This document shows, piece by piece, positions 29,509 to 50,859 of a stretch of DNA of 64,000 nucleotides. The stretch's first letter is position 1. Each line of letters opens with the position of its first letter. The position numbers and the translations under genes are program-made. The notes beneath the pieces are model-generated. The model worked only from the letters and a program-made list of their open reading frames with translations, was not told the origin of the DNA and did not search any database. The stretch lies in NCBI RefSeq assembly GCF_003018255.1, contig NZ_CP027440.1; one strand, written 5' to 3'. The stretch is from Escherichia coli (lineage in GTDB: Bacteria; Pseudomonadota; Gammaproteobacteria; Enterobacterales; Enterobacteriaceae).

Positions 29509-30453
29509 ATGACAAACTTTACGACCAGCACGCCGCATGACGCATTATTTAAATCCTTTCTCACACACTCTGACACCGCGCGGGATTTTATGGAGATCCA
29601 CTTACCCAAAGATTTACGTGAACTGTGCGATCTCGATAGCTTAAAACTGGAATCCGCCAGCTTTGTCGATGAAAAATTGCGGGCGCTACATTCCGATATT
29701 CTGTGGTCGGTAAAGACCCGTGAAGGCGATGGCTATATTTATGTAGTGATTGAACATCAGAGCCGTGAGGATATTCATATGGCCTTTCGTCTGATGCGAT
29801 ATTCCATGGCGGTGATGCAGCGCCATATCGAACATGATAAACGCCGGCAGCTACCGCTGGTCATCCCGATGCTGTTTTATCACGGTAGCCGTAGTCCTTA
29901 TCCCTGGTCCCTGTGCTGGCTGGACGAATTTGCCGACCCGACTACCGCACGGAAGCTTTATACCGCCGCGTTCCCGCTGGTGGATATCACTGTCGTGCCA
30001 GACGACGAGATTGTGCAGCATCGCAGAGTCGCCCTGTTGGAGTTGATCCAAAAGCATATTCGCCAGCGCGATCTGATGGGGCTTATTGACCAACTGGTAG
30101 TATTACTGGTTACAGAGTGTGCTAATGACAGCCAGATAACTGCGCTGTTAAATTACATTTTACTGACTGGTGATGAAGCGCGTTTTAATGAGTTTATCAG
30201 TGAAATTACCCGTCGACTGCCACAACAAAGGGAGCGAATAATGACGATTGCAGAGCGAATTCATAATGATGGATGGCTGTTAGGGATGGAAAAGGGGAAA
30301 GAAGAAGGGGAACAACGCCTCCTTAGATTGCTTTTGCAGAACGGTGCGGATCCTGAATGGATACAACGATATACTGGACTTTCGGCAGAGCAAATGCAGG
30401 CATTAGAGCAACCCTTGCCTGAAAGCAAGCGCGATCCATGGATCGAGTACTAA
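29509..30453 (+). CDS. rpnD: Recombination-promoting nuclease RpnD (Rpn / transposase_31, PD-(D/E)XK family), apparently intact
   Basis: 314-aa uninterrupted ORF with the Rpn-family core ([21 protein letters not shown]). K-12 carries this locus as the split yjiP/yjiQ pseudogene pair, as I recall. Confidence 0.8.
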
Positions 30454-30547
30454 TCAGAGACTGATGACAAACGCAAAGCTGCCTGATGTGCTACGCTTAT
30501 CAGACCTACATTACCTCTGCAATCTATTGAATTTGCGCGATTTGTAA

Positions 30548-30576
30548 GCCGGATAAGGCGTTCACGCCGCATCCGG
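30548..30576. repeat. REP element
   Basis: GCCGGATAAGGCGTTCACGCCGCATCCGG, near-identical to the copy at 15835-15866. Confidence 0.8.
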
Positions 30577-30694
30577 TATGAACAAAGCACACTTTGCCTA
30601 AGCCATGCTGGAACGTGGCGATGCCCCTGCAAAGATAAAACGAGTCACAGGCGATTCGTGAGAGGAAATCAGGGGCCTCGCCACTAATTCGAAT

Positions 30695-32107
30695 TCATTC
30701 CATTGCCCGATACACGGCTTCGCCAATTTGCTTTAGTGCTTCGCGATAGGTTTCGCTGAGCGGCAAAGCGCAGTTGATGCGCAGACAATTACGGTATTTG
30801 CCGGAAGCCGAGAAAATCGAGCCTGCTGCCACCTGGATTTTCATGCGGTAAAGCTGCCGCGCGACGCAGACCATATCGACCTGTTCAGGCAATTCTATCC
30901 ACAGTAAAAATCCGCCTTTCGGGCGCGTAATACAGATTTCGCAGGGAAAATATTCCCGTATCCAGCAGGTATAAAGCGCCAAATTGCGCTGATAGATCTG
31001 CCGCATCCGCCGGATATGGCGATGATAGTGACCTTCCAGCACAAACGTTGCCGCCGCCATTTGCGTGGACGGCACATTAAAGCTGCTGATGGCGTATTTC
31101 ATATGCATCAGTTTATCGTGATAACGCCCCGGTGCGACCCAACCCACGCGCAGGCCTGGTGCAATACTTTTACTGAACGAGCTGCACAGCAGCACTCGCC
31201 CGTCGATATCCCAGGAATGAATGGTCCGCGGGCGCGGATACTCCGTCGCCAGTTCGCCGTAGACATCATCTTCAAAAATCACAATATCATGACGCTGAGC
31301 GAGAGAGAGAACGGCCCGTTTGCGTGCGTCCGGCATAATAAATCCCAGCGGATTATTACAGTTTGGCACCAGAATGATGCCTTTAATCGGCCACTGTTCC
31401 AGCGCCAGTTCCAGCGCTTCAACGCTGATGCCTGTTTCTGGATCGGTTGGGATTTCAATCACTTTCACGCCCATACCGCGCAGCATCTGCATTGAACCGT
31501 AATAACAGGGGGATTCGACTGCGACAATATCGCCCGGTTTACATACCGCCATTAACGCCAGCGACATCGAGTTATGGCAGCCGCTGGTGATAATGATGTC
31601 ATCGGCGGTGACCACCGAGCCGCTGTCGAGCATCAGGCGGGCAATCTGCTCTCGCAACACTCGCTGACCGGCTAACAAGTCATAACCGAGAACGGTTTGC
31701 AGATTATGCTGCACCACCCGGCTTAGCTCCCGCCACAGCGGTTTCAGGCTGGGCGTTTCGACATCCGGCGTGCTTTTACTTAACGGAACAATGGAACTGT
31801 CGCTATGCGCCTCCAGCATATCCAGCACTTGATCCCACTGGGTAATTTCCACCGGGCGCTGCACCGGACGCGTCATCGGCGGTACTGGCGGCTGGGCTTT
31901 ACGTTGTGCGACAAAATAACCCGAACGCGGCTGCGGAGTGATGAGCTTCATCGTCTCCAGCGTCTGGTACGCCTGCTGCACGGTGCTAATACTGACGCCG
32001 TGCTCCTGACTTAAGCTGCGCACCGACGGCAATTTCTCCCCGTGACGATACAGCCCTTGCTCAATCCGCTCGGCAAGTAGAGTCGCCAGATGTTGATAAC
32101 GCGTCAT
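30695..32107 (-). CDS. yjiR: MocR-family PLP-dependent transcriptional regulator YjiR
   Basis: 470-aa ORF: N-terminal GntR-type helix-turn-helix (EKLPSVRSLSQEHGVSISTVQQAYQTLE) fused to an aminotransferase-fold domain. Confidence 0.9.
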   Translation of the reverse strand: MTRYQHLATLLAERIEQGLYRHGEKLPSVRSLSQEHGVSISTVQQAYQTLETMKLITPQPRSGYFVAQRKAQPPVPPMTRPVQRPVEITQWDQVLDMLEAHSDSSIVPLSKSTPDVETPSLKPLWRELSRVVQHNLQTVLGYDLLAGQRVLREQIARLMLDSGSVVTADDIIITSGCHNSMSLALMAVCKPGDIVAVESPCYYGSMQMLRGMGVKVIEIPTDPETGISVEALELALEQWPIKGIILVPNCNNPLGFIMPDARKRAVLSLAQRHDIVIFEDDVYGELATEYPRPRTIHSWDIDGRVLLCSSFSKSIAPGLRVGWVAPGRYHDKLMHMKYAISSFNVPSTQMAAATFVLEGHYHRHIRRMRQIYQRNLALYTCWIREYFPCEICITRPKGGFLLWIELPEQVDMVCVARQLYRMKIQVAAGSIFSASGKYRNCLRINCALPLSETYREALKQIGEAVYRAME

Positions 32108-32283
32108 GCTGTATTCCTTATTTGGACCATACAGAGAGAAAAACCGGTACAGATGAGGCTAAAAAACCGGATGCAGATGCTGTTTTAACCTGTCTGTATG
32201 TTAAATAAAACTAATATTTGCATCTGTATTGTGAACTGCCAGAAGACGGATGATGAAGCCTCTGAAAGATGAGGAGGCAGCAG

Positions 32284-32448
32284 ATGGAATTTCACGAAAA
32301 CAAAGCTAAAGCACCGTTTATTGGACTTGTGCAACTCTGGCAGGCAGTGAGGCGTTGGCGGCGGCAAATGCAGGCCCGGCGGGTGTTACAGCAGATGAGT
32401 GATGAGCGGTTGAGGGATATTGGGTTACGCAGGGAGGATGTGGAGTGA
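32284..32448 (+). CDS. yjiS: DUF1127 small protein YjiS
   Basis: 54-aa ORF MEFHENKAKAPFIGLVQLWQAVRRWRRQMQARRVLQQMSDERLRDIGLRREDVE, found by hand (below the ORF-track length cutoff); recognised as YjiS. Confidence 0.75.
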   Translation: MEFHENKAKAPFIGLVQLWQAVRRWRRQMQARRVLQQMSDERLRDIGLRREDVE

Positions 32449-32544
32449 TGGGGCAGTTCGTCGCGGATAAACAGGATTTCTCTATAACCTCCACAAGGAA
32501 GTGGTTATTATTGCGAAATCATCGCTTCACGGAAAGACGTCAGA

Positions 32545-34638
32545 ATGAAAGCTACAGAAGCCCGCCTACTCGATTTTTTAAAACGTTCGCAGCAGTTTGT
32601 TATTCCCATTTATCAACGGACTTATTCATGGACAGAACAACAATGTCGGCAACTTTGGGACGACATCATTCGTGCCGGAAAGCGTGACGATATATCAGCG
32701 CATTTTATCGGTTCGGTTGTTTATATAGAGCAGGGATTGTATCAGGTTTCTGGTATTTCTCCGTTGCTGGTCATTGATGGTCAACAGCGGCTGACGACCG
32801 CAATGTTGCTGATTGAGGCTTTATCACGCCATCTTGGCGAAGACGAAGTTTTTGATGGCTTTTCAGCAATGAAATTGCGTAATTATTATTTACTCAATCC
32901 TTATGAGTCCGGCGAGAAAGGATTTAAATTACTGCTGACCGAGACTGATAAAGACAGTTTGCTGGCGTTAATAAAACAAAGACCAATGCCAGAAAACTAT
33001 TCCCATCGAATAATGGAAAACTTTACTTTCTTTGATGAACAAATTGCCAAACTCGGTGATGACTTGATCCCCTTATGTCGTGGGTTAGCAAAGTTATTAA
33101 TTGTCGATGTGGCGCTTAATCGTGGTCAGGATAATCCGCAACTGATTTTTGAAAGTATGAACTCCACCGGTAAGGCGTTAAGTCAGGCCGATCTGGTGCG
33201 CAATTTTATTCTGATGGGCCTCGAACCAGAGCATCAAACCCGGTTGTATGAAGATCACTGGCGTCCAATGGAAGTCGCTTTTGGTCAGCAAGGTTACAGC
33301 GAATATTTTGACAGCTTTATGCGTCATTATCTGACGGTAAAAACGGGGGAGATCCCTCGGACAGATGAAGTCTATGAGGCATTTAAACTCCATGCCCGCA
33401 GCCAGAGTGTTGCTGAAAAAGGCGTAGATCGGCTGGTTGAAGATATTCACATCTACGCGGAGTATTACTGTGCAATGGCATTGGGAAAAGAAAGTGACAA
33501 ATCGCTTGCTACGGCTTTTCAGGATTTGCGCGAGTTAAAGGTCGATGTGGCATATCCTTTCTTACTGGCGCTTTATCATGACTATAAAAATGGCGATTTG
33601 CCTCACGAAGATTTCCTGAGCATAATTCGTTTAATTGAATCTTATGTTTTCCGCCGTGCAGTATGTGCGATTCCGACGAATTCTCTTAACAAGACGTTTG
33701 CCACTTTTTATAAAGTCATTAATAAAGAAAAATATCTGGAAAGTATTCAGGTACATTTTCTGAATCTGCCTTCATATCGTCGTTTCCCCAACGATGATGA
33801 ATTTAAACGGGAATTAAAAGTTCGCGATCTCTATAACTTCCGTAGTCGCAGCTACTGGTTACGACGACTGGAAAACGATAAACGCAGAGAGCGCGTGGAA
33901 GAGTTTACGATTGAGCATATTATGCCGCAGAACGAAAATCTGTCGGCTAAATGGCGCGAAGAGTTGGGAAGCGACTGGCAGCGTGTGCATAAAGAATTGT
34001 TACATACGTTGGGGAATCTCACTTTAACGCGCTATAACTCCCGCTACAGTGACAGACCTTTCGCGGAAAAACGCGATATTGAAGACGGCTTTAAGCATAG
34101 CCCGCTTTATTTGAATATCGGTCTTGGACAGTGCGAAAAATGGGATGAAGCCGCCATTCACGCCCGAGCCGATCGTCTGGCCGATCTTGCGGTTCAGGTT
34201 TGGCAAGCGCCTGCTCTTCCTGAAGAGGTTTTAGCTGTTTATCGGGCGCAGCCGGAGAACAAAACCAGTTACAGCCTGAGTGATTATCCTTTTCTTGCTG
34301 ATGGTTCGCATAGCCGGGTGTTATTTGATCATCTTCGCGATGAAGTTATGCGCCTGGACGCAGGGATCACGCAGGAAGTATTGAAGCTCTATATTGCGTT
34401 TAAAGCTGAAACGAATTTTGTTGATGTTGTGCCGCAAAAAAGCCGACTGCGATTGTCGCTTAATATGCAGTTTCATGAACTGGTCGATCCGAAAGGTATT
34501 GCCAAAGATGTGACAAATGTTGGGCGATGGGGCAATGGCGATGTGGAAATTGGTTTCAGTGACCTCGCACAACTTCCTTACATTATGGGATTAATTCGTC
34601 AGGCATTTGAAAAACAGATGGAGAACGCGTTGGTATAA
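32545..34638 (+). CDS. DUF262 (ParB-like NTPase) + DUF1524 (His-Me finger nuclease) fusion protein; GmrSD-like putative type IV modification-dependent restriction endonuclease
   Basis: 697-aa ORF. N-terminal DUF262 hallmarks (FVIPIYQRTYSW and the DGQQR motif in LLVIDGQQRLTTAMLL); C-terminal DUF1524 hallmark (FTIEHIMPQN ... LGNLTLTRYN). Sits in the slot that holds yjiT/yjiV/mcrBC in K-12. Confidence 0.8.
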   Translation: MKATEARLLDFLKRSQQFVIPIYQRTYSWTEQQCRQLWDDIIRAGKRDDISAHFIGSVVYIEQGLYQVSGISPLLVIDGQQRLTTAMLLIEALSRHLGEDEVFDGFSAMKLRNYYLLNPYESGEKGFKLLLTETDKDSLLALIKQRPMPENYSHRIMENFTFFDEQIAKLGDDLIPLCRGLAKLLIVDVALNRGQDNPQLIFESMNSTGKALSQADLVRNFILMGLEPEHQTRLYEDHWRPMEVAFGQQGYSEYFDSFMRHYLTVKTGEIPRTDEVYEAFKLHARSQSVAEKGVDRLVEDIHIYAEYYCAMALGKESDKSLATAFQDLRELKVDVAYPFLLALYHDYKNGDLPHEDFLSIIRLIESYVFRRAVCAIPTNSLNKTFATFYKVINKEKYLESIQVHFLNLPSYRRFPNDDEFKRELKVRDLYNFRSRSYWLRRLENDKRRERVEEFTIEHIMPQNENLSAKWREELGSDWQRVHKELLHTLGNLTLTRYNSRYSDRPFAEKRDIEDGFKHSPLYLNIGLGQCEKWDEAAIHARADRLADLAVQVWQAPALPEEVLAVYRAQPENKTSYSLSDYPFLADGSHSRVLFDHLRDEVMRLDAGITQEVLKLYIAFKAETNFVDVVPQKSRLRLSLNMQFHELVDPKGIAKDVTNVGRWGNGDVEIGFSDLAQLPYIMGLIRQAFEKQMENALV

Positions 34639-34684
34639 CGTGGCGAATAATACCCGGTAGCACTGGCGCTACCGGGTCAATGTA

Positions 34685-35026
34685 TCAGGCGACTTTCTGT
34701 TTACCCGCAATCACCCCAATAAATTCCCGCACCTGCTTTTGTTTACGCGCCGACAGCTTGCACACCTGGCGCAGCGACTGCATTAGCTCGCTCTCTTCGG
34801 GGGCGGGTGGTTGGGCGGTGAGGACAATACAGCCTTCCATCACTTTGACAGCTATCGCCGTGCCGGTGGCAAAACCGGCGGCTTCCAGCCACTGACCTTT
34901 CAGGGTGATGGCGGGAATACGGCTGTAATCCGGGTAGCGACTCGCATAACTCACGGTTAATTGACGGTTATTTGCCGGGGAGACTTCTGCTTCGAACGGT
35001 TGTGCAATAGAATGCGTGTCAGTCAT
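34685..35026 (-). CDS. symE: SymE, SOS-induced toxin-like protein (type I toxin-antitoxin, AbrB-fold endoribonuclease)
   Basis: Start trimmed to [52 protein letters not shown] (113 aa); lies immediately upstream of hsdS as in K-12. Confidence 0.9.
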
Positions 35027-35100
35027 AACTGCTATTCCTTGAAAATAGTGATTGTGATGAGCGGTGCGGGTGTGTTGGCGCACATCCGCACCGCGCTAAA
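35015..35100 (+). ncRNA. symR: Putative SymR antisense sRNA (antitoxin) overlapping the symE start and 5' UTR; boundaries approximate
   Basis: Known arrangement: SymR is transcribed antisense across the symE translation start. A TAGAAT -10-like hexamer at 35008-35013 and a strong stem-loop at 35061-35094 are present on the plus strand. Ends were not mapped. Confidence 0.3.
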
Positions 35101-35103
35101 TAC

Positions 35104-35119
35104 CTGGATATATCATCAG
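35104..35119. promoter_or_regulatory. Putative LexA box (CTG-N10-CAG) upstream of symE
   Basis: CTGGATATATCATCAG, an AT-rich dyad of the CTG-N10-CAG type, about 80 bp upstream of the symE start; symE is a known SOS gene. Confidence 0.45.
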
Positions 35120-35246
35120 TAAATACAGGGAAAGTCCAGCTAAAAATTAATGAAAATAAGATAGAAGTTAGCGTGAAATATAATTTTTGGTGATGTGAAT
35201 AAAGCGGCTATTGAGCCGCTTTATTGGTTTTATGAGGGCGAGAAAA

Positions 35247-36983
35247 TTAGTTTATCGCCGCGTTAGTCAGTGCGTCTGCAAGGTGCAGTTGGGTTTGTTG
35301 GGCGGTTTTTATACGAGTTTTAAGCTTATCGCATAGTTCATGAAGTAAACCTACTTGTGAAAATATTCTATATTGTTCAGTTAATGGTGGGCATGGGAAT
35401 GAATACAACATTACACTATTTGCTGATAGGTTGGGTTGTGCTGAGCCATTATCAAAGCGGTAAATCTGTGAGCGCCCAAATGGACTGGTTAAATAATTAT
35501 AAATATACCCTCCCATTTCTGTGATAAATGGTCTAATGATCATTAGTGATGAGGCAATAGCTCCTGTTTCATAGGGGGTTACAAAGGCAGTTTTACCAAA
35601 AGTTGCTCCTCGTAGGCAATAAACCAAATCACCTTTTTGAATTTTCCCACTTCTTAATTCATTAAATTTTCCTTCGGTTATAAAATTCATTTCTGTAACC
35701 GTAAGTGTACCATTTTTTTCTATATGTCCAGTATTGATCCAAGGAATACCTTGAGAAACATACTCATTTTTATTGGGATAATTACTTCCACGATCGCCAT
35801 TTATAAACTCTGATGTTAAACCAAATTTACACCACTCCCACCCTTCCGGCAGTTCAAACGGTTTTTCCTCATTGCTAATTGGCGGTAGTGGTTTTTGTTT
35901 TTTTATTTTCCCTTCTTTCACCAGTTGAGCTTTTTCCTGCGCAATTCGTTTGAGCAGTTCAGAGGCGGGTTCGTCATTCGGATCCTGCGGCACAAGTTTA
36001 CCCATTACGGCCAGTTGAAGAATGGTCTGTTTTAACGCATCCACGCTGGCTTCGGTGGTAAATAGGGTGTCGAAATGCTCGCTAATACGCGCCCAGTTTT
36101 CAGCCAGTTCCTCGGCGTTTTGGCTGTCTGTAAGCGTTCCCAACAGGGTTTCAACCAGTTGCTGATGTGCGTCCAGACTGGTCAGGGATTGCTGTTCCAG
36201 TTGGTCGCAGAGAACTGTAAGTTCTCTGATTTTTCTGACAATTTGTTGTTGTTCATTTATAGGCGGTAAAGCGATTATCTGTTGTTCCATTTTTTCTTTA
36301 GTCATATGGAGCATTGCAATACCGTTACCTTGCGATTTTATTTTATCTGTAATGGATAAAAGAAAATCATGTATAAAATATTTGTTTGAGTACTCTTCTG
36401 CAAATAAATTTAATTTCCATATATGGTAGTGATAAATTACTTTTTCTCCTGTCCAAATGAATGGCCCAAAAGATGCGGACCAAGCGTATATTAAATCACC
36501 ATTATTTATATATTTGTTTTCGTCTAATTGGAGGTCAGAGTAATACCACTCATTTGATGTGAATAGATTACCAACACGCAGCAAAGGAGTGCCTGTTTGA
36601 AGCATTTCATGTTTTTTATATGCTCGACCGTTAATAACCTCCATGAGATCTGCAACCCGCACCCACTCCCATCCCTCCGGCAATTCAAACGGCTTCTCTT
36701 CCTCGCTAATTCCTGGCAGTGGTTTTTGCTTTTTAATTTTACCTTGCTTCACCAGCTCTGCTTTTTCCGCAGCAATACGCTTCAGCAGCTCCGACGCCGG
36801 TTCATCATTCGGATCCTGCGGCACCAGTTTACCGCGCACCGCCAGTTCCAGAATCAGCTCACGCAATTTCTTAATGCCATACAAATCAATTTTACCGGAA
36901 CTGCCGCGCCCGGCGGTGGAACGGGTTTGCAACGCCGAGGTCCAGGTTTCCATATGATCAACGATCAGCTTTTCCACACTCAT
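35247..36983 (-). CDS. hsdS: Type I restriction-modification specificity subunit HsdS (non-EcoKI allele; family-IB-like domain order)
   Basis: 578-aa ORF with two variable target-recognition regions. A conserved segment occurs twice, at the N-terminus and in the centre (GKLVPQDPNDEPASELLKRIA.EKA.LVK.GKIKKQKPLP.IS.EEKPFELPEGWEW). Its ATG overlaps the hsdM stop (ATGA). Confidence 0.88.
   Translation of the reverse strand: MSVEKLIVDHMETWTSALQTRSTAGRGSSGKIDLYGIKKLRELILELAVRGKLVPQDPNDEPASELLKRIAAEKAELVKQGKIKKQKPLPGISEEEKPFELPEGWEWVRVADLMEVINGRAYKKHEMLQTGTPLLRVGNLFTSNEWYYSDLQLDENKYINNGDLIYAWSASFGPFIWTGEKVIYHYHIWKLNLFAEEYSNKYFIHDFLLSITDKIKSQGNGIAMLHMTKEKMEQQIIALPPINEQQQIVRKIRELTVLCDQLEQQSLTSLDAHQQLVETLLGTLTDSQNAEELAENWARISEHFDTLFTTEASVDALKQTILQLAVMGKLVPQDPNDEPASELLKRIAQEKAQLVKEGKIKKQKPLPPISNEEKPFELPEGWEWCKFGLTSEFINGDRGSNYPNKNEYVSQGIPWINTGHIEKNGTLTVTEMNFITEGKFNELRSGKIQKGDLVYCLRGATFGKTAFVTPYETGAIASSLMIIRPFITEMGGYIYNYLTSPFGRSQIYRFDNGSAQPNLSANSVMLYSFPCPPLTEQYRIFSQVGLLHELCDKLKTRIKTAQQTQLHLADALTNAAIN
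35832..36020. repeat. Internal direct repeat of hsdS, copy 2 (central conserved region)
   Basis: About 190 bp of high DNA identity to 36663-36852, including the shared core TCATTCGGATCCTGCGGCAC. Confidence 0.8.
36663..36852. repeat. Internal direct repeat of hsdS, copy 1 (N-terminal conserved region)
   Basis: Direct repeat partner of 35832-36020. Confidence 0.8.
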
Positions 36984-38452
36984 CAGTTAACCTCCTTGCC
37001 AGACAGCGCAGCGCCAAGAATATCGCGCAGTTGATTACGCAGCGTCTGGATCTCCGCCTGCTGTTTTGCATACTGCGCTAACAGTTCGTCCGGGTCATGG
37101 CTGACGGTTTCCGCCTGATGTGGGTTTTTAATATCCAGATTGAAGTTACGCGCAATCACGTCATCAATGCTGACTTTCCACGCTTGCTCATTCTCGATGC
37201 GGCTGGCAAAACCATCGGCCTCGTTACCCCACCAGTCAATCTCCGCCTGAAACTCTTCGAACTTCATCGGCTTGGTTTTACTGTAATTTTTCACGCCCGC
37301 CGGATACGGATGCTCATAGAACCAAATCTCTTTGGTTGGCTGACCTTTGGTAAAAAACAACAGGTTGGTTTTAATGCCGGTATAGGGGTTAAACACACCA
37401 TTCGGTAAACGCACGATGGTATGCAGATTGCACTCTTCGGTAAGCAGCTTTTTGATTTTGGTTTTAACGCCTTCGCCAAATAGCGTGCCATCCGGCAATA
37501 CCACCGCCGCGCGACCGTTTTTCGCCAGTACTTCCACAATCAGTTGCAGAAACAGATCCGCTGTTTCGCGGGTTTGCATCTCTGCCGGAAAGTTCTTCTC
37601 AATACCGTCTTCTTCCGTGCCACCAAACGGCGGGTTGGTAACAATGACATCCAGTTGCTCATCCCAGGAGGAAAGCGGTTTGTTCAGGGTGTTGTCGTGA
37701 CGAATTTGTACAGGCACTTCAATGCCGTGCAGCAGCATATTGGTGGTCGCCAGCAGGTGCGGAAGCTGTTTTTTCTCGACACCGTGGATCTGTTGTTGCA
37801 GCGTCTGATGATCGGCGACGCTCTTCACGTATTTGTTCTTTACATGATCGAACGCGCAGGCAAGAAAACCGCCCGTACCGCAGGCCGGGTCCATAATGGA
37901 TTCGCCGAGTTTCGGATCAACGCGATCCACCATAAAGCGAGTGACGGCGCGTGGCGTATAGAATTCGCCAGCATTGCCCGCAGATTGCAGATCTTTAAGG
38001 ATCTGTTCGTAAATATCACCAAACAGATGGCGTTCGCTGGCGCTGGTAAAGTCAATTTCGTTCAGCTTGTTGATCACCTGGCGCAGTAGCGTACCGTTTT
38101 TCATATAGTTATAGGCATCGCTGAACGCCTGCTTCACCACGTAGCCGCGTGGGTTTTTATCGATAGGCGCAGTGAGGTTTTTCAACGCCGGGAACAGATC
38201 ATCATTAACGAATTCCAGCAGGGAATCACCGGTAATGCCCTGAGCGTTTGCGGCCCAACTGCGCCATAAATAACGCTGTGGGATCGGATATTGATAGTTA
38301 TCCTGCTCCAGTTCCAGCGCCTCTTCCTGGGCATCGAAGATTTTCAAAAACAGCAGCCAGGAGAGCTGACCGAGACGCTGCGCATCGCCATCCACACCGG
38401 CATCTTTGCGCATAATATCTTGTAATGATTTGATTACTGAACTGATAGACAT
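36983..38452 (-). CDS. hsdM: Type I restriction-modification N6-adenine DNA methyltransferase HsdM (non-EcoKI allele)
   Basis: SAM-binding motif I (DPACGTGGFL) and catalytic motif IV (VVTNPPFGG). Start trimmed to MSISSVIKSL (489 aa). Confidence 0.88.
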   Translation of the reverse strand: MSISSVIKSLQDIMRKDAGVDGDAQRLGQLSWLLFLKIFDAQEEALELEQDNYQYPIPQRYLWRSWAANAQGITGDSLLEFVNDDLFPALKNLTAPIDKNPRGYVVKQAFSDAYNYMKNGTLLRQVINKLNEIDFTSASERHLFGDIYEQILKDLQSAGNAGEFYTPRAVTRFMVDRVDPKLGESIMDPACGTGGFLACAFDHVKNKYVKSVADHQTLQQQIHGVEKKQLPHLLATTNMLLHGIEVPVQIRHDNTLNKPLSSWDEQLDVIVTNPPFGGTEEDGIEKNFPAEMQTRETADLFLQLIVEVLAKNGRAAVVLPDGTLFGEGVKTKIKKLLTEECNLHTIVRLPNGVFNPYTGIKTNLLFFTKGQPTKEIWFYEHPYPAGVKNYSKTKPMKFEEFQAEIDWWGNEADGFASRIENEQAWKVSIDDVIARNFNLDIKNPHQAETVSHDPDELLAQYAKQQAEIQTLRNQLRDILGAALSGKEVN

Positions 38453-38518
38453 GTTGTATTCCATGAAAAACAAGGCCTTCTGCAACATGATGGTTGCAGA
38501 AGGCGCAAAAGAGAGTTG

Positions 38519-40951
38519 TTAAGCAGAGCGGGGCGGTAATTGGTAGATTTCGTTTTCCAGCTCGCTGAGCGCCTGATTATACCCGTTACGGTCGCCAAAT
38601 CCGGTTTTAATAATCTCCGGTAAGGTGCCCATGCTGTCGAATGGTTTAAGTTTCAGCACCTGAATACTTTCGATCTCCTGTACGCCCGCATCGGCGTATT
38701 TATCCAGCAGATTATCGAGCACGGCTTGCGCTGCTTCAGAGTATTTTGTGAAGTAGTTCCGCTTGCGCACGTTCTCGGCGCGCTCTTTGCGGGTTAACGG
38801 CGGCTGACCATACACTACGTGGCAAAGCATGTCGAACGGGTCGAGATCTTTACCGACTTCTTCTGCCAGTACTTCCCAGATGATCCCCTGTTGTTCCAGC
38901 TCGTGAATGATCGCTTCTTTGCGATCGGCGTCCTGCCACTTGCGGGTAAAGTCATCCAGCGAGGCATATTCTTTGAGCAGTGTTTTGCGGGTGTAATCTT
39001 TAAAAGATTCGGTAACCAGTTTACCGTCGGCATCGTAATACTGAACACGCTGCGCAATAACGCCCACCGCTACACCGTTGACGTGAAACTTGCGGATTTT
39101 CTTCTCGTCTTCTTCCGGAAGTGGGCCGACATCATCGGTATCGGTAACCTGGTATGGTGGCGCAGGCGGTTCATCAACGCCTGTTACCTGTTCGTCGTCA
39201 TGTTCGCTGATTTCTTCGAGTTTCTCTTCAAAATCAGATTCTGGATCGGCGATATCCTCTGATGTGGTATCCATGACTTTTTCGGGAATGCCATCGAAAC
39301 GCTCATCGGCAAACAGTTCGGTGGCTTTTTTAAAGTCGAGGATGGTAAACCAGAGTTTGCCGTAACGTTCGTCGATGCGTGTACCACGACCGATAATTTG
39401 CTTGAATTTGGTCATCGACTGGATGTTCTGGTCCAGTACTACCAGTTTGCAGGTTTTAGCATCCACACCAGTGGTCATCAGCTCTGAAGTGGTCGCGATA
39501 ACCGGGTACGCTTTTTTCGGGTTGATGAAGTTATCCAACTGAGCTTTGCCAATTTCATCATCGCCGGTGATTTTCATGACGTATTTGTCGTTCTTTTTCA
39601 CCTGCTCCGGGTTGAGATTCACCAGGGCGCGGCGCATACGTTCTGCATGATCGATGTCGTTACAGAAGACGATGGTTTTATCCATCGGGTTGGTGCGCTT
39701 GAGGTAGTCGGTAATGGTTCTGGCAACCAGTTCTGTCCGTTCGTCGATTACCATCGTGCGATCGAAATCTTTCTGGTTATAGATACGATCGTCGATCACT
39801 TCGCCGTTTAAGTCAGTTTGCCCTTTGGTTGGGCGCCAGCCTTGCAGATCAACATCAATATCAACACGGACAACTTTATAAGGGGCGAGGAAGCCGTCTT
39901 CGATCCCTTCTTTTAGCGAGTAGACGTAAACCGGATCGCCGAAGTAATCCGTGCTGGAGACTTCATGCGTCTCTTTTGGCGTGGCGGTTAAGCCAATTTG
40001 GGTGGCGGAACTGAAATAATCAAGGATCTCTCGCCAGGCGCTGTCTTCGGATGCGCTGCCGCGATGGCATTCGTCGATCACGATCAGATCGAAGAAATCT
40101 GGTGCGACTTGTTTAAACGCTTTTTGGTCTTCCTCCGGGCCAGTTATAGCCTGATAGAGCGCGAGGTGAATTTCATAAGCGGGATCAATGGTGCGTCCGC
40201 TGACTTTGGTCATTGCCGTACCAAATGGCTGGAAATCATTATTTTTGGTTTGGTCGACCAGAATGTTGCGATCGGCAAGGAACAAAATGCGTTTTTTATT
40301 TTTTGATTTCCACAGGCGCCAGATGATCTGGAATGCGGTATAGGTTTTCCCTGTTCCGGTCGCCATGACCAGCAGAACGCGGTTTTGCCCGTTGGAGACG
40401 GCTTCAATGGTTTTGTTGATTGCCTGAAGCTGGTAATAACGAGGCGATTTGCCGCTGCCATCGTCGTAATAGTCCTGAGTAATCACCGGAAGCTGAGCTT
40501 GTGTGTATCCTTTCCAGAGGCAGAATTTTTGCCAGAGTTCAGCGGGGGAGGGGAAGTCATCCAGCGTTATTTGCTTTTCAAGGCATTCACCTTCAGCTGC
40601 GGTGGCATCGCGGAAGATAAAGCCATCACCGTTGGTGGCAAAAACAAAAGGAACGTCCAGCAGGCGCGCATATTCAATGCCCTGTTGCATCCCTTTGCCA
40701 ATTTCATGTTTGTTGGCTTTTGCTTCAATCACGGCTAAGGGAATGCCTGGTTTGTGATACAGCACGATGTCAGCAGATTTTACCGTTCTGCGTGCCGCAA
40801 CTTTACCACGTACGATGACTTTACCGTTCCGGAGTTTGACCTCCTGTCTGATTTGCGTTGTGTTGTCCCAGCCTGCATTGAGAATGGCTGGCATAACGCA
40901 TTTGGTAATGATGTCTGCTTCCGTCAGGTTACTTAGGTTCAGTTCCGCCAT
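38519..40951 (-). CDS. hsdR: Type I restriction-modification endonuclease/translocase HsdR (810 aa, non-EcoKI; family-IB-like)
   Basis: N-terminal PD-(D/E)XK nuclease region ([19 protein letters not shown]), SF2 helicase Walker A (MATGTGKT) and motif II (DECHR). Much shorter than the roughly 1170-aa EcoKI HsdR. Confidence 0.88.
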
Positions 40952-41091
40952 GGGGTGTTCTCATCTAAATGCGATGCGTAAATTCTACACAGAAAAATAG
41001 ATGAATTCATCTGTTCAAAGAGTATTATCAGCGTTAAGTCACTGTTTTAAAGGTATTCTTGAGTTTCATCAATAGCTGGATAAGGATTCAT

Positions 41092-42060
41092 ATGGAGAAT
41101 GTTCGGTTCTTGCAAGGAGTGAAACAATATTTTTGTACTAAGGCATTAGATGTCATTCTGCTAATTTATCTACTCCTTGGTTTTATACTTCTCCCTTATA
41201 AATATCTGTGGAAAGATATTATTTTATCTCTGTACTTTGTTGGTATTCTTCTTTATGCATTAGTGGAAGAAAATCGCATTGCAGAATATATGGGGTATTT
41301 TGTTAAGTTCAGTAATAAAAACAGGTTGAATAGTTGTGCTGCCTGGTGTTCACTTATTGCATGGTTTATATTTTTGTTTTTTGTGCTTTCAATTAATATT
41401 TTTCCAGTCAGTGCCTCTGTATATATTTTTAGTGCTTTTTCATTATTTGTTTTTCTGGGGGGTATTTTTATTATATTAGAGTTAGAGTTTAAAGAAAATA
41501 AAAAATTAATGATTATTAGGTCTGTGACTATAGCAGTCATGCCAATTATATATTTATTCACAAGTAGTTATGCTTCCAGTTTATTTTTAAGTTTGAGTAA
41601 TCTAAACATTACGCTAACTCCATGGGTTGAGTATTTCTGGAAAGGGATGGTTTTTATGTTGCTTTTCTTCATGTTAATGCAACTTATTATCTATTTTGCT
41701 TTTTTAACTCTGGGGACTAAATTAAGTGTGTATAGGTTGTTTATACTTGCCGGAGCATTTGTAGTATCTACTTTTTTAGTGGCTTTTGCTTTAAAAAATG
41801 TAGAAGGTATTTCGTACTACGTTTTAAAAAGCACCATAGATTTTGAATGGCGTAATCAGATTAAATGTGGCCAGTTGAATATTTCACGTTCGAATGAAAA
41901 GTATTTTGGGTTTAATACTGATAAATATACTGTATTTTATTCCGGCAGAGATGGTAAATGGGGCTTTGATGAGTTGAAATGTAAGAAAGGTTCTGACAGG
42001 AGAGATGCATATTCTATTGAGAATGTCTCAGAATATAACGTGCCTGGATGGCTGAAATAA
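41092..42060 (+). CDS. Hypothetical multi-pass membrane protein with C-terminal soluble domain, strongly AT-rich (foreign composition); occupies the position of mrr in K-12
   Basis: ORF-track frame 41059-42060 (TTG start); trimmed to ATG at 41092, preceded by AAGGA. At least six hydrophobic helices (e.g. ILLIYLLLGFILLP, IAWFIFLFFVLSINIF, MVFMLLFFMLMQLIIYFAFLTL), then a charged C-terminal tail of about 80 aa. I recognise no catalytic motif. Confidence 0.6.
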   Translation: MENVRFLQGVKQYFCTKALDVILLIYLLLGFILLPYKYLWKDIILSLYFVGILLYALVEENRIAEYMGYFVKFSNKNRLNSCAAWCSLIAWFIFLFFVLSINIFPVSASVYIFSAFSLFVFLGGIFIILELEFKENKKLMIIRSVTIAVMPIIYLFTSSYASSLFLSLSNLNITLTPWVEYFWKGMVFMLLFFMLMQLIIYFAFLTLGTKLSVYRLFILAGAFVVSTFLVAFALKNVEGISYYVLKSTIDFEWRNQIKCGQLNISRSNEKYFGFNTDKYTVFYSGRDGKWGFDELKCKKGSDRRDAYSIENVSEYNVPGWLK

Positions 42061-42377
42061 GTCATCTTTATAAATTATATAGTAAAGGTTCTGGTCATAA
42101 ACGAGCATAGTTAAACATAAACGGGGCATACTCCACACACTTGATGTGCAGCAAGAAGTTGAACTCATGGCTTTGGTTAATAAATCTGACGAAGATATTG
42201 ATTACAGCGACATTCCTGCGTCTGGTAGCGAAGCATGGGCTGACGCCACACGCGGCAATTTTTTGCCAGATCCAGGTATTCACGCGCAATAAAACTTAGC
42301 GGAGGGGAGCACGTCGTTCTGTTTCCCCCTCACTGCTAAGTGGGGCATTGGGTTGCTTTACACTCAACCTTTTACGA

Positions 42378-43334
42378 TTATTTCCTCAACCCCGCAAACG
42401 CCGCCCGAATCTTATCCTCCGGCAGCTGAATCCCGATAAACACCATTGTGCTATGCGGTGTTTCATCGCCCCACGGGCGGTCCCAGTCGGCGCTGTAGAG
42501 GCGTTGGACGCCCTGGAACAGCAGGCGGCTAGGTTCGCCGTCAATCCACAGCATCCCTTTGTAACGCAGTAGTTTATCCGCCGATTCCAGCAGCAGGTTT
42601 TCCATCACGCGGGAAACTTCGCTGATATCTACCGGGTAATCCAGTTCCACCACAATCGACGAAATATCGTTTTGTTTATCCGCGATAAAGTGGAAACGCG
42701 GTTTGGTGCTGACGACGTTTTCTTCCAGCATAAAACCGTTGGTGTTGAACAACAGGCCCAGGTCGATGTCACCGTGGGTGACGGTGTAGACCGGTGCGCG
42801 GGCGTTGATGCGCGCCAGGCGTTCACGCAGTTTCTCTACTTCGCCTGCGACGTCGGTTTTAGTCAGCAGAATACGGTCAGCGTAGCCCACCTGGGACTGG
42901 GCGATGGTGAACTGGTTCATCTGCTCATCGGCATGTACCGCATCCACCAGCGCAATCACGCCATCCAGCAGGTAACGCTGGCATAAAATCTCATGGGAGA
43001 AAAAGGTCTGAATAATCGGGCCGGGATCGGCCATGCCGGTGCATTCAATGACCAGACGGTCGAACTGAATATTGCCCTTGTCGAGATTGTCCAGCAGGTC
43101 GAGTAGCGCGTCCTCCAGCTCGTTGGAGCGCGAACAGCAGATGCAGCCGTTGGTCAGCGTTTTGATCTGCGTGGCGCGGTCGCCAATCAGTTGATCATCA
43201 ACGGAGACTTCGCCGAATTCGTTTTCAATCACGGCAATTTTGTAGCCGTGCTGTTCATTAAGAATATGGCGCAGCAGGGTGGTTTTGCCCGCGCCTAAAA
43301 AACCGGTGAGTAGGGTAACTGCAATCGGGTTCAT
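42378..43334 (-). CDS. yjiA: CobW/HypB-family (COG0523) metal-binding GTPase YjiA
   Basis: Start trimmed to MNPIAVTLLTGFLGAGKTTLL (P-loop) with the CxCC motif (GCICCS); 318 aa. Confidence 0.92.
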   Translation of the reverse strand: MNPIAVTLLTGFLGAGKTTLLRHILNEQHGYKIAVIENEFGEVSVDDQLIGDRATQIKTLTNGCICCSRSNELEDALLDLLDNLDKGNIQFDRLVIECTGMADPGPIIQTFFSHEILCQRYLLDGVIALVDAVHADEQMNQFTIAQSQVGYADRILLTKTDVAGEVEKLRERLARINARAPVYTVTHGDIDLGLLFNTNGFMLEENVVSTKPRFHFIADKQNDISSIVVELDYPVDISEVSRVMENLLLESADKLLRYKGMLWIDGEPSRLLFQGVQRLYSADWDRPWGDETPHSTMVFIGIQLPEDKIRAAFAGLRK

Positions 43335-43344
43335 GCTCTCTCCA

Positions 43345-43548
43345 TTAACAACAGCGCATACCGCCTTTACCATCGCCGCCGTAGCGCGCGTTCTGGCGTT
43401 CGCGGAAGAATTCTTCATAGCTCATGTACGGCTTGTCGGGATGGTTGGTCTTCATATGCTCGACGTAGTTGTCGTAGTCTGGAATGCCAATCAACATCTT
43501 CGCCGCCTGGCCGAGATATTTTTTTGCCTGTCCTAAGTTACCAAACAT
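43345..43548 (-). CDS. yjiX: DUF466 small protein YjiX
   Basis: 67-aa [61 protein letters not shown]...; downstream partner of btsT/yjiY. Confidence 0.88.
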
Positions 43549-43560
43549 AGTTCACTCTGA

Positions 43561-43588
43561 TAAGAACAAAGCCCCGCCGAAGCGGGGC
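43561..43588 (-). terminator. Hairpin with U-rich tail between btsT and yjiX (terminator or attenuator)
   Basis: GCCCCGC-CGAA-GCGGGGC stem-loop; on the minus strand it is followed by TTTGTTCTTA. Confidence 0.5.
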
Positions 43589-43597
43589 TAAACACGG

Positions 43598-45748
43598 TTA
43601 GTGGTGCGAAGAGATCTTCACGCCGCCTTCCGGGATTGGAACGTACGGAGTTTCTTTGTCAGTACGTTTGTCGCTGTTACGCACCGCAAGCCAGGTTTTG
43701 AAACCGTAGAAGATGATGCTGTACACCACAATCAGGAACAGAATACTCAGACCCGCGTTAGTGTAGTTGTTCACAACGATGTGGTTCATGTTGGCAATCT
43801 GCTGTGCCGTCAGGTCAGTACCGTTAGCAATCTTCTCTTTGTACTGGCTTGCCATGTAGAAGAAGCCTTCCATCTGCGGGTTGGTGCTGAACAGTTTCAG
43901 GCCCAGCGCCCAGGTGGTGCAGATAAGCAGCCATACAGCCGGAACAACAGTTACCCAGATGTATTGGGTGCGCTTCATCTTAATCAGCACAACGGTGCCC
44001 AGTACCAGTGCTACGGCTGCCAGCATCTGGTTGGAAATACCGAACAGCGGCCACAGGCTCTTAACGCCGCCCAGCGGATCGACCACGCCCTGATACAGCA
44101 GGTAGCCCCACAGACCCACACAGCCCGCAGTACCGATGATACCAGCAACCAGAGAGTCGGTTTTTTTCAGGAACGGGATGAAGTTACCCAGCAGGTCTTG
44201 CAGCATAAAGCGGCCAGAACGGGTACCCGCATCCAGCGCGGTCAGGATGAACAGGGCTTCGAACAGAATACCGAAGTGATACCAGAAGCCCATGTCAGCC
44301 ATCGGCAGCACTTTGTGGAACACGTGCGCGATACCTACCGCCAGCGTCGGCGCACCACCTGCACGGTTCAGGACAGAAGGTTCACCAATGTCTTTCGCGG
44401 TTTGCAGGATCTGCTCTGGCGAAATCACGAAGCCCCAGGAGCTGACGGTCGCCGCCGCGTGTGCGGTAACGTCTTTCAACTGCGCCATGATGATCGGCGC
44501 GTTCTCGCCACCCATTTCATGCAGGTTAGGCATGGTGATGCCAAGGCCAGCAGGCGGGGTGTTCATCGCGAAGTAAAGACCCGGTTCGATGATGGACGCA
44601 GCAACCAGCGCCATAATCGCCACGAAGGACTCCATCAGCATTGCGCCGTAGCCAATGAAACGCGCGTCGGTTTCGTTAGCCAGCAGTTTCGGCGTCGTAC
44701 CGGAAGAGATCAGCGCGTGGAAGCCAGATACCGCACCACAGGCGATGGTGATGAACAGGAACGGGAACAGAGCGCCTTTCCACAGCGGGCCAGTACCGTC
44801 AATGTACTGGGTCATCGCAGGCATTTTCAGTTCCGGGTTCAGCACCACGATACCCAGCGCCAGGCCGACGATAACGCCGATTTTCAGGAAGGTTGCCAGA
44901 TAGTCGCGTGGTGCGAGGATCAGCCACACCGGCAGCAGCGCGGAAACAAACGCATAGCCAATCAGCGCGAAGGTAATGGTGGTGTCTTTAAAGGTCAGTG
45001 CCGGACCCCAGTACGGATCGTGAGCAATCACGCCACCGAAGTAGATAGAGGCAACCAGCAGCACGATACCAATGACAGAGACTTCACCCACACGCCCCGG
45101 ACGAATAAAGCGCATGTAGATACCCATAAACAGCGCAATCGGTACGGTTGAGCAAACGGTGAAGACACCCCACGGACTTTCGGCCAGGGCTTTAACCACA
45201 ATCAGCGCCAGGACGGCGAGGATGATGATCATGATTAAGAAACAGCCAAACAGCGCGATAGTCCCCGGTACTGGCCCCATCTCTTCTTTGATCATCTCAC
45301 CAAGAGATGCGCCATTACGGCGAGAGGAGATAAACAGCACCATAAAGTCCTGAACCGCACCGGCCAGCACGACCCCCGCCAGCAGCCACAGCGTGCCAGG
45401 CAGGTAGCCCATCTGCGCGGCGAGAACCGGACCCACCAGCGGACCTGCACCGGCGATAGCGGCGAAGTGGTGACCAAACAACACGTAACGGTTGGTCGGA
45501 ACGTAGTTCAGACCGTCGTTGTTAATAACCGCAGGCGTCGCGCGCGTGGGGTCGAGTTTCATCACCTTCTGGGCGATGTACAGACTGTAGTAGCGATAAG
45601 CCACCAGATACACCGACACAGAGGCGACCACGATCCACAGGGCGCTGACGTGCTCCCCCCGACGTAATGCAACTACCGCGAGGCAGAATGCACCGATGAT
45701 TCCGAGAATCACCCAGGGTATGTGCTTGAATATCTTTTTAGTATCCAT
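43598..45748 (-). CDS. btsT: CstA-family pyruvate/H+ symporter BtsT (YjiY)
   Basis: Start trimmed to MDTKKIFKHIPWVILG (716 aa); large polytopic CstA-family transporter. Confidence 0.92.
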   Translation of the reverse strand: MDTKKIFKHIPWVILGIIGAFCLAVVALRRGEHVSALWIVVASVSVYLVAYRYYSLYIAQKVMKLDPTRATPAVINNDGLNYVPTNRYVLFGHHFAAIAGAGPLVGPVLAAQMGYLPGTLWLLAGVVLAGAVQDFMVLFISSRRNGASLGEMIKEEMGPVPGTIALFGCFLIMIIILAVLALIVVKALAESPWGVFTVCSTVPIALFMGIYMRFIRPGRVGEVSVIGIVLLVASIYFGGVIAHDPYWGPALTFKDTTITFALIGYAFVSALLPVWLILAPRDYLATFLKIGVIVGLALGIVVLNPELKMPAMTQYIDGTGPLWKGALFPFLFITIACGAVSGFHALISSGTTPKLLANETDARFIGYGAMLMESFVAIMALVAASIIEPGLYFAMNTPPAGLGITMPNLHEMGGENAPIIMAQLKDVTAHAAATVSSWGFVISPEQILQTAKDIGEPSVLNRAGGAPTLAVGIAHVFHKVLPMADMGFWYHFGILFEALFILTALDAGTRSGRFMLQDLLGNFIPFLKKTDSLVAGIIGTAGCVGLWGYLLYQGVVDPLGGVKSLWPLFGISNQMLAAVALVLGTVVLIKMKRTQYIWVTVVPAVWLLICTTWALGLKLFSTNPQMEGFFYMASQYKEKIANGTDLTAQQIANMNHIVVNNYTNAGLSILFLIVVYSIIFYGFKTWLAVRNSDKRTDKETPYVPIPEGGVKISSHH

Positions 45749-46015
45749 AGTAAAACCTGGCATGTATTGATTAATAGTTGGCCGAAGCCGTTCTAGGTTT
45801 GCGTTGCGTTTGAGGAGGTAAATTGACCGCTATCCTGCAGTGATGTTGCCAGAGTTACGCGCGCGTAAAGTAAGGTAAATAACTGAGTGGTTATTTTAGG
45901 GACGTAAGCGGTCAGGAATGGCGGTGAGCGGTTGGGCAAGAATTATTCGTCGGGTGGATATGTGATTGAGATCACAATAAAAATGCCCCTTCGATAATTA
46001 ACCGAAGGGGCGTTC

Positions 46016-47236: not shown

Positions 47237-47286
47237 AACATTTACCTTTTAAGTTTTTCACCGTATCGGATGTGAGTATCACTTGT

Positions 47287-47313
47287 AACTAAATGAAATA
47301 TAAATATTTAGTT
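47287..47313. promoter_or_regulatory. Perfect 8-bp inverted repeat (AACTAAAT-N11-ATTTAGTT) in the divergent promoter region; candidate operator
   Basis: Read directly from the sequence; sits in the AT-rich gap between the DSD1-like gene and the D-aminoacylase operon. Confidence 0.4.
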
Positions 47314-47427
47314 TATTTATCTTATTATTTATGAATAAAAGTATCATAAAATCATCTGGGTTTTGCGTAGTTTTCCACTGTTTTTCGTCCTTGTAAATGG
47401 TTAACTTGTCACCATTGCAGAAATGGA

Positions 47428-48879: not shown

Positions 48880-48882
48880 GGA

Positions 48883-49278
48883 GTGAATATGAGCATTAAA
48901 CGTTACGGTACGGAAGGTGGAACAGGCACTGGCGGGCAGCATTTGCCTTTTGCCAGGGCGGTTGAGGCGGGCGGCTGGCTGTACGTCTCCGGGCAAACAC
49001 CCATGAAAAACGGTGAAGTGGTAGAAGGCGGAATCGTTGAACAGTCACGACTGGCGATCCAAAACTGTGTCGACATCATGACTGAAGCCGGTTATAGCCT
49101 GGCGGATGTGGTTCACGTGAAAGTGATCCTGACCGACGCCCGCTATTTCCAGTCATTTAATAAAGTATTCAGAGAATTTTTTGGCGAGAATCCGCCTGCA
49201 CGTATTTGTTGTGTGGCTGATCTGGTTGTCGATTGTAAAGTCGAAGTCGATGTGACCTGTTATAACGCGACCCGCTAA
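48883..49278 (+). CDS. RidA/YjgF/TdcF-family reactive enamine/imine deaminase
   Basis: 131-aa ORF (...GGWLYVSGQTPMKNGEVVEGG...ARICCVADL...), characteristic of the RidA fold; starts 4 nt after the aminoacylase stop. Confidence 0.75.
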   Translation: MNMSIKRYGTEGGTGTGGQHLPFARAVEAGGWLYVSGQTPMKNGEVVEGGIVEQSRLAIQNCVDIMTEAGYSLADVVHVKVILTDARYFQSFNKVFREFFGENPPARICCVADLVVDCKVEVDVTCYNATR

Positions 49279-49380
49279 TAAATTTAAGAATTAAAAAAAC
49301 AGACCGCAATTGAGTGCTGAATACATTCAGCACTCCGGGAACTCTTACATTAATTTCTCTCTACTGGCAGGATGTGAATT

Positions 49381-50850: not shown

Positions 50851-50859
50851 CCAACAATG

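Follow-up and report, generated by a model that had tools for sequence, protein, structure and literature searches.

The window analyzed here is a 64,000-nt (64-kb) stretch of the Escherichia coli contig NZ_CP027440.1, and the element in question is the gene symE together with SymR, the small antisense RNA that overlaps its 5′ end. The locus is the immigration control region (ICR), the interval between yjiN/yjiR/yjiS and yjiA; the enterobacterial ICR was reportedly described by Sibley and Raleigh in 2004. The order in the window (yjiN to yjiR and yjiS, then a GmrSD gene, symE, the type I restriction genes hsdSMR and two hypothetical open reading frames (ORFs), then yjiA) places symE within this defense island.

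The symE coding sequence, identified as an ORF and from its translation, occupies 34685–35026 on the minus strand, with the start codon ATG at 35026–35024 and the stop codon TGA at 34687–34685, and encodes 113 residues in an intact frame. The protein matches Pfam PF08845 (SymE_toxin) with 76 bits against a cut-off of 29, the expected family and length (∼113 residues) for the 'proper' SymE group of the symE/symR type I systems. Alignment with MG1655 symE gives 93.9% nucleotide identity, the codon differences comprising 11 synonymous and 8 non-synonymous changes, so that 105 of the 113 residues (93%) are identical and 8 are changed; the stop codon is TGA in the window but TAA in K-12. RefSeq labels the identical DNA of E. 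coli 2014C-3338 (NZ_CP027452.1) as symE: positions 34600–35300 match that genome at 100%, 31000–38500 are identical, and identity is 99.08% across 24.7 kb. SymE, the toxin of the pair, has an AbrB/MazE fold, and the MG1655 annotation now describes it as a DNA-binding, nucleoid-condensing protein. A PADLOC search returned no match of SymE to any defense model, and thus offers no support for filing it as a known defense protein.

The antitoxin, the 77-nt cis-antisense RNA SymR, lies at 35021–35097 on the plus strand and matches Rfam RF01809 over its full length (1–77 of 77; 91.7 bits, gathering score 61, E = 2.4e-17); symR is therefore present in the window, although it carries no RefSeq annotation in the closest genome. 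Its 5′ end falls 5 nt within the symE coding sequence, the same offset as in the MG1655 annotation, and for that reason SymR is antisense to the start codon, the Shine–Dalgarno sequence and the leader. Complementarity covers the symE 5′ untranslated region (UTR), the Shine–Dalgarno sequence (AAGGA, 35040–35036 on the minus strand), the start codon and the second codon, the overlap that is characteristic of symE/symR type I systems. The whole RNA is predicted to fold into the two stem-loops typical of SymR (−39.3 kcal/mol, z = −6.1). The 5′ stem-loop (35022–35058, plus strand), which is found in both the individual fold and the consensus structure, carries an apical loop (35037–35043) antisense to the symE Shine–Dalgarno region. 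The 3′ stem-loop (35061–35094, plus strand; Rfam model positions 41–74) accounts for the strong hairpin that the first-pass annotation had placed in the overlapped 5′ UTR: it is real, with 15 pairs, −28.8 kcal/mol and z = −6.2 on the plus strand (0 of 200 shuffles were as stable), and its minus-strand mirror image forms a hairpin in the symE mRNA leader (−23.4 kcal/mol, z = −4.5). Both helices are predicted in 15 loci from 6 genera, with 29 pairs kept in the consensus; because the sequences are close, covariation support is modest, amounting to one compensatory pair and several one-sided G-U/A-U changes. K-12 SymR differs in having one stem mismatch where window SymR has a perfect pair.

Within ∼150 nt of near-invariant sequence, a 6-nt patch at 35038–35043 (loop 1 of SymR, and the Shine–Dalgarno region of symE) is strongly strain-variable, with 5 versions in 7 E. 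coli loci and ∼10 in the 15 loci. The 3′ end of the patch is purine-rich in every version (GGAG, AGGG or AAGG), and the Shine–Dalgarno sequence reads AAGGA in the window and GGAG in K-12. Most simply, the patch is an unconstrained loop obliged to keep a ribosome-binding site, or it could tune translation or the specificity of SymR. Two sub-threshold Rfam matches in 35052–35237 (IS128, 26.6 bits against 80; sraL, 23.4 against 39) were treated as chance.

The symR promoter probably includes the −10-like hexamer TAGAAT read at 35008–35013 (plus strand), within symE codons 5–7 and 7 nt ahead of the first SymR nucleotide. This hexamer belongs to the initial 87 nt of the symE coding sequence, a stretch identical in K-12, where two silent changes in the symR −10 abolished SymR (PMC1891008). 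For symE itself, the candidate promoter lies in a conserved block at 35122–35147 (minus strand), which includes a −35-like TGGACT at 35138–35133 and forms the right-hand end of a homology island common to all E. coli symE loci; ATTTTTAGCTGGACTTTCCC is invariant in 7 E. coli loci, and similarity to other hsd families ends upstream of ∼35147. It counts against these assignments that a sigma-70 consensus scan of 34500–35400 called neither the symE nor the symR promoter, and the positions given are consequently those suggested by identity with K-12.

At the other end of symE, an inverted repeat, CCCGGTAGC-N6-GCTACCGGG, was read at 34653–34676 in the 46-nt gap between the stop codons of symE and the convergent GmrSD gene, and it recurs in the GmrSD-linked locus of strain WP7-S18-ESBL-09. 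It is a probable shared terminator of the two genes, and was missed by the terminator scan of 34500–35400 because it lacks a T-run. The sole terminator reported by that scan is a palindromic hairpin at 35198–35225 (12-pair stem, reported on the plus strand only), which separates the hsdS stop codon (35247) from the symE promoter and belongs to the flank specific to type IB hsd operons; it probably insulates symE from hsd read-through.

Between the symE leader and the conserved promoter block lies a putative LexA operator (35102–35121). Its core dyad, CTG-N10-CAG (CTGGATATATCATCAG, 35104–35119), was proposed in the first-pass annotation to fit SOS control. On the symE strand the 20-mer reads TACTGATGATATATCCAGGT and differs from the orthologous K-12 box, TACTGATGATATATACAGGT, by one substitution (ACAG in K-12, CCAG in the window); directly upstream of the box the window has TG where K-12 has CA. 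The box lies 5–24 nt upstream of the region that base pairs with the SymR 3′ end and 76–95 nt upstream of the ATG, which would place it at or just upstream of the presumed symE transcript start. The K-12 box (yjiW/symE) is a published LexA site (PMC1891008), with a published heterology index (HI) of 7.9 (PMC11228462). As the bare dyad occurs 20 times in the window, close to the ∼16 expected for a palindromic 6-base pattern, the full 20-mer was scored with a Berg–von Hippel matrix built from the 16 LexA sites in Table 4 of PMC3009722; this matrix differs from the original Lewis 1994 matrix, and its scale is not exactly the published one (K-12 symE scores 8.1 here). The unsymmetrized HI is 9.46 for the window box and 8.11 for the K-12 box, and the symmetrized values are 12.34 and 11.43, compared with leave-one-out ranges for the 16 real sites of 0.5–12.9 and 2.2–16.6, respectively. 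Among the 63,981 20-mers of the window the box ranks first unsymmetrized and second symmetrized, where shuffles predict 0.05 and 0.40 such sites per 64 kb. The core dyad, the AT-rich spacer and a score that does not fall below the range of functional sites are thus as expected for a member of the LexA regulon, and SOS control is well supported as the reading of an operator orthologous to the published one.

Some of the evidence pulls the other way. Judged by score alone, the box ranks as mid-to-weak among LexA sites, and in one K-12 RNA-seq study symE was LexA-dependent (2.5-fold) yet only 1.5-fold induced by azidothymidine (AZT) (PMC11228462). One might therefore suppose that the dyad no longer works as a LexA site in the window strain, leaving symE under the control of SymR and Lon only, since the A-to-C change beside the CAG half-site and the non-consensus left half (CTGA, not CTGT) would weaken the operator. 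The HI is indeed 0.9–1.35 units above that of the K-12 site and lies in the weaker third of real sites, and even K-12 symE is induced weakly. However, C at box position 15 is present in 6 of the 16 training sites (recN, dinI, ruvA, uvrD, cho and uvrB), published tables list LexA-responsive sites up to HI 13 (PMC11228462), a range that includes the window box, and the box ranks best in the window. Furthermore, exact 30-mer matches to the CCAG allele were found in 1966 complete E. coli genomes, and the K-12 allele gave 437, a number that includes many laboratory K-12 derivatives (the 30-nt queries held the variable base inside every 28-nt seed, and neither of them matched ∼470 symE genomes): CCAG is the commoner form in nature and the K-12 box the minority one. 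The loss of LexA control is, on this evidence, extremely unlikely. Beyond E. coli, the dyad is kept in Pseudocitrobacter, Pantoea dispersa and P. piersonii despite diverged upstream DNA; Kosakonia cowanii (TTG) and Pantoea persica (TAG) carry a disrupted dyad.

Three other LexA-like sequences were noted. A second candidate upstream (CTGTATTTACTGATGA, which includes the TG allele at 35127–35126) has a consensus left half but TGA in place of CAG, and was not counted. The other low-HI 20-mer of the window (41928–41947, TACTGTATTTTATTCCGGCA) lacks the CAG half and lies inside a 333-residue ORF. Another CTG-N10-CAG dyad, whose spacer is moderately AT-rich (40745–40764, GCCTGGTTTGTGATACAGCA), lies ∼190 nt inside the 5′ end of hsdR; it has an HI of 12.9 unsymmetrized and 15.5 symmetrized and is probably a chance match.

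Pfam, Rfam and the alignment to K-12 agree on a symE/symR toxin–antitoxin module, as had been proposed, and comparison with the K-12 symE–symR region reveals the same gene order and overlap geometry. As judged from its sequence, the window locus is very probably the canonical chromosomal symE–symR type I toxin–antitoxin module of the E. coli ICR, with all its parts present and in apparently working order.

The mode of action set out here has been demonstrated, in all its steps, for the K-12 allele, and would extend to the window by virtue of near-identical sequence. The K-12 locus and its three layers of repression, by SymR, LexA and Lon, were described by Kawano, Aravind and Storz in 2007 (PMC1891008). 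LexA bound at 35102–35121 would keep symE untranscribed until LexA is cleaved in response to DNA damage, while SymR would be made from a promoter within the first symE codons. By pairing with the symE leader, Shine–Dalgarno sequence and start codon, SymR would mainly block translation; in K-12 it is very stable and in ∼10-fold excess, and mutation of the symR −10 raised SymE protein sevenfold and the mRNA threefold (PMC1891008). Lon would remove any SymE produced, and overproduced SymE would be expected to arrest growth, as toxicity upon overproduction, repression by SymR and degradation by Lon are all documented for K-12 SymE (PMC1891008; PMC4147584). SymE was first proposed as an endoribonuclease (an RNase-like toxin); later work, by Thompson et al. 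2022 in the account given by PMC11894785, detected no RNase activity and presented SymE as a nucleoid-condensing protein that binds DNA non-specifically.

The surroundings of symE have been exchanged relative to K-12. There the order is mcrCB, symE/symR, hsdS-M-R of type IA and mrr, whereas the window has a GmrSD gene for mcrBC, EcoAI-family (type IB) hsdSMR for type IA, and two hypothetical ORFs for mrr. A blastn comparison of the MG1655 ICR with the window found, in addition to the anchor genes on the left (95.0% identity) and right (98.0%), a single match at 34689–35147: this gap-free island of 459 bp and 93.5% identity spans symE, symR and the promoter/operator region, reaches ∼26 nt past the LexA box, and is the only DNA in common with K-12 between yjiS and yjiA. 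The guanine-plus-cytosine (GC) content is 0.53 in the island, 0.44 in the GmrSD gene and 0.42 in hsdS. The view that symE is kept while its hsd and type IV neighbors are exchanged is borne out by this confinement of homology to the anchors and the island.

The type IB (EcoAI-family) hsdR-hsdM-hsdS operon occupies 35247–40951 on the minus strand, with Pfam matches to Methylase_S, to N6_Mtase and HsdM_N, and to ResIII, EcoEI_R_C and HSDR_N, and the RefSeq label 'EcoAI/FtnUII family'; hsdS (35247–36983) is its promoter-distal gene and stands in tandem with symE, just as K-12 symE lies downstream of hsdS on the same strand. On the other side, a single-chain GmrSD-type type IV restriction gene (32545–34638, plus strand, 697 residues; Pfam GmrSD_N, GmrSD_C and DUF5655) is convergent with symE and matches Orf5/HEC-06/mREase_IV in PADLOC.

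To what extent is symE linked to the promoter-distal end of hsd? Among 5426 complete E. coli genomes, 2873 carry symE. Junction queries of 301 nt, half conserved island and half family-specific flank, were searched against this set and matched at coverage of at least 80% in 966 genomes for the junction with type IB hsdS, 915 for type IA hsdS and 963 for a family in which hsdR is distal. Together, the three type I junction classes account for 2844 of the 2873 symE genomes (∼99%). The total numbers of matching genomes in the searches (2862, 2682 and 2857) never exceed the symE count, which indicates that these hsd 3′ ends rarely occur without symE. Gene order around symE was inspected at eight loci, and at every one symE lies in tandem just past the last gene of a type I operon. 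A GmrSD gene and type IB hsd flank symE in the window and O157:H7; GmrSD and type IA in WP7-S18-ESBL-09; a gene for a 2114-residue helicase and type IA in strain 204446; and mcrCB and type IA in K-12. In D7 and AHB1, yjiS is followed by symE and an hsdR-hsdS-hsdM operon whose distal gene is hsdR, probably type ID from its gene order. The proposed linkage of symE to the distal end of hsd is thereby strongly supported, but the description of the neighboring type I system as 'foreign' is not: type IB is a resident alternative about as common as the two others.

The further idea that symE serves as a flank for cassette exchange is a plausible inference from the comparative data. The island sits at the boundary of two slots that appear to vary separately, the hsd operon upstream and a type IV or other defense gene downstream. 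Homology to other haplotypes breaks at or inside the edges of symE: at the symE stop codon in K-12 and 204446, within the last 8 symE codons in D7 and AHB1 (which have a different C-terminus), and ∼120 nt upstream of the symE ATG. The slots are also found in mixed pairings, as the same GmrSD–symE junction occurs with IA as well as with IB, and three left neighbors accompany IA (GmrSD, mcrBC and the 2114-residue helicase). Finally, symE is itself mosaic, with all four gametes present at alignment columns 370 and 466 inside the gene. It is plausible, at about even odds, that homologous crossovers in or at the edges of the 459-bp island reassorted both sides at least a few times. Several observations weigh against this. 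The four-gamete result comes from six sequences and could be explained by recurrent mutation. IB was always found with GmrSD, and the hsdR-distal family always without a type IV gene, in evenly spaced hit-list rows, which together with the eight inspected loci are the basis for statements on the linkage of left and right cassettes. Exchange may mostly take place by replacing entire ICR haplotypes via the outer anchors, and divergence from K-12 rises toward the ICR edges: across the flanks (30695–32453 and 42378–45931) identity is 93.3% for yjiS, 96.2% for yjiA, 98.2% for yjiR, 98.8% for btsT and 100% for yjiX, a pattern expected near a long-polymorphic locus.

These same observations can be assembled into a rival account, in which symE is a passenger: each hsd family was joined once, long ago, to a resident symE, whole haplotypes are swapped via conserved genes on the outside (yjiA, yjiN/yjiR) or in RecA-independent events with a neighboring Rpn nuclease, and the island is no working recombination flank. 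The strong linkage of left and right cassettes in the sampled rows agrees with this account, as do the identities of yjiS and yjiA relative to those of yjiX and btsT, which would be expected if old haplotypes were exchanged through the flanks. An Rpn/YhgA gene lies beside the ICR, RecA-independent replacement at this locus has been reported (PMC4498929, PMC5350276), and Rpn proteins have been implicated in such exchange at the ICR. It fits poorly with one GmrSD–symE junction meeting two unrelated hsd families, with IA meeting three left neighbors, and with the internal mosaicism of symE; the mixed pairings call for several exchanges at minimum between the slots, where no DNA other than the symE island is shared. 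We consider the passenger account a serious contender, but on the doubtful side. A different question is whether the pairing of symE with type I operons reflects a functional partnership in E. coli, in which SOS-induced SymE protects the chromosome from, or backs up, type I restriction, or the toxin–antitoxin pair stabilizes the hsd cassette. The position of ∼99% of symE loci right behind a type I operon, of three non-homologous kinds, could be read in this way, and the ∼47% of genomes without symE gave essentially no extra matches to these hsd 3′ ends; SymE-family genes have been noted near restriction-modification genes before (PMC1891008), and SymE binds DNA (PMC11894785). Yet the great stability and 10-fold excess of SymR (PMC1891008) are a misfit with a classical addiction module, SymE lacks a PADLOC defense-model match, and deletion of hsdSMR in three strains gave no phenotype beyond restriction (PMC8287963).

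Other genera bear on the same question. When one genome per species was searched by pattern, the module (a LexA-type dyad, SymR and symE) turned up in Escherichia whittamii, Pseudocitrobacter, Kosakonia and three Pantoea species. The upstream flank of Pseudocitrobacter faecalis resembles the E. coli IB type and that of E. whittamii the IA type, but in Kosakonia cowanii and two Pantoea the neighbors are an integrase, fimbrial genes or type VI secretion genes (Hcp/Tlde1), not hsd, from which it follows that the ∼0.5-kb module can exist without a type I system. This argues that the symE–hsd linkage in Escherichia is historical rather than an obligate cooperation, in keeping with an earlier proposal that SymE loci are small selfish units which settle in variable islands (PMC1891008). 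A partnership in E. coli is accordingly unlikely, and the stronger proposition that symE–symR is a functional accessory of type I restriction and not a bystander is highly unlikely. Were it true, SOS-induced SymE might compact or coat DNA and so limit self-restriction at unmodified sites after damage and repair; alternatively, the SymR loop/Shine–Dalgarno patch might set specificity groups relevant to cassette exchange in the ICR. Two contigs in bins labeled as Bacillota (L016 and L018) hold symE–symR regions near-identical to those of E. coli, including an IB-type or IA-type upstream flank, and are probably mis-binned enterobacterial contigs.

Several features of the flanking DNA were recorded alongside. 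The GmrSD gene is one uninterrupted frame in the window, with DUF5655 C-terminal; in O157:H7 a frameshift divides the orthologue between two ORFs. The identical DNA of 2014C-3338 is recorded in RefSeq as a 'partial' pseudogene plus a coding sequence, apparently an annotation artefact inherited from the split version. Beside hsdR, where K-12 has mrr, lie the 333-residue ORF (41059–42060, plus strand, GC 0.31), which gave no Pfam or PADLOC match and is an uncharacterized gene at a defense-island position, and a 63-residue ORF (42101–42292, plus strand). The Rpn/YhgA-like (Transposase_31) ORF that adjoins the ICR (29509–30453, plus strand) encodes 314 residues and is intact by virtue of one G at 29906, the sole indel between the window and the closest RefSeq genome, whose copy of this ORF is annotated as frameshifted. 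The gap between the rpn gene and yjiR contains, at 30502–30583, sub-threshold matches to Rfam ES036/CssrF (33.4 bits against 37.6) and to the first hairpin of naRNA4, a repetitive extragenic palindromic (REP)-like element. Further downstream, ∼5.9 kb between btsT and tsr (45931–51845) are not present in MG1655 and look like a small catabolic island, with genes for a D-serine-dehydratase-like/alanine-racemase-fold enzyme, an amidohydrolase, a RidA/L-PSP protein, a sodium:solute symporter and an RpiR-type regulator.

Published work already covers the symE locus, SymR, the LexA control and the position within the ICR. The window shares its gene order, overlap, two-hairpin SymR fold and LexA-box position with E. 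coli K-12 symE (yjiW, b4347)/symR (ryjC, b4625) (PMC1891008), and its yjiA/yjiN bounds, type I hsd genes, type IV enzyme and symE–symR with the ICR ('hotspot 36') of PMC12707154. That 2025 EcoSal Plus review lists IA, IB and ID hsd, mcrBC, mrr and GmrSD in the ICR and names 'symE symR' among toxin–antitoxin systems, and the order GmrSD, 'endoribonuclease', hsdS, hsdM, hsdR has been reported in avian pathogenic E. coli (APEC) O1 and other pathogenic strains (PMC4437046). Compared with the described ICRs, the window shows no essential difference, although it has two hypothetical ORFs at the usual mrr site and an intact rather than split GmrSD gene. Among other type I systems, tisB/istR-1 and dinQ/agrB likewise combine a LexA-repressed toxin with a constitutive small RNA that blocks toxin translation (PMC4147584), but their toxins are small membrane peptides, whereas SymE is a 113-residue soluble AbrB-fold DNA-binding protein, and the istR-1 and agrB RNAs are divergent or trans-acting, whereas SymR is a perfect cis-antisense of the leader.

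The annotation of the window is thus sound, and what is added here is quantification, not a new kind of arrangement: a linkage so far described qualitatively now has numbers, ∼99% of symE loci split about evenly among three junction classes, to which are added the standing of the K-12 LexA box as a minority allele and the variable 6-nt patch of SymR. The linkage, and the presence of a 459-bp island of shared DNA between two independently varying defense slots, could help in modeling how defense islands are reshuffled.

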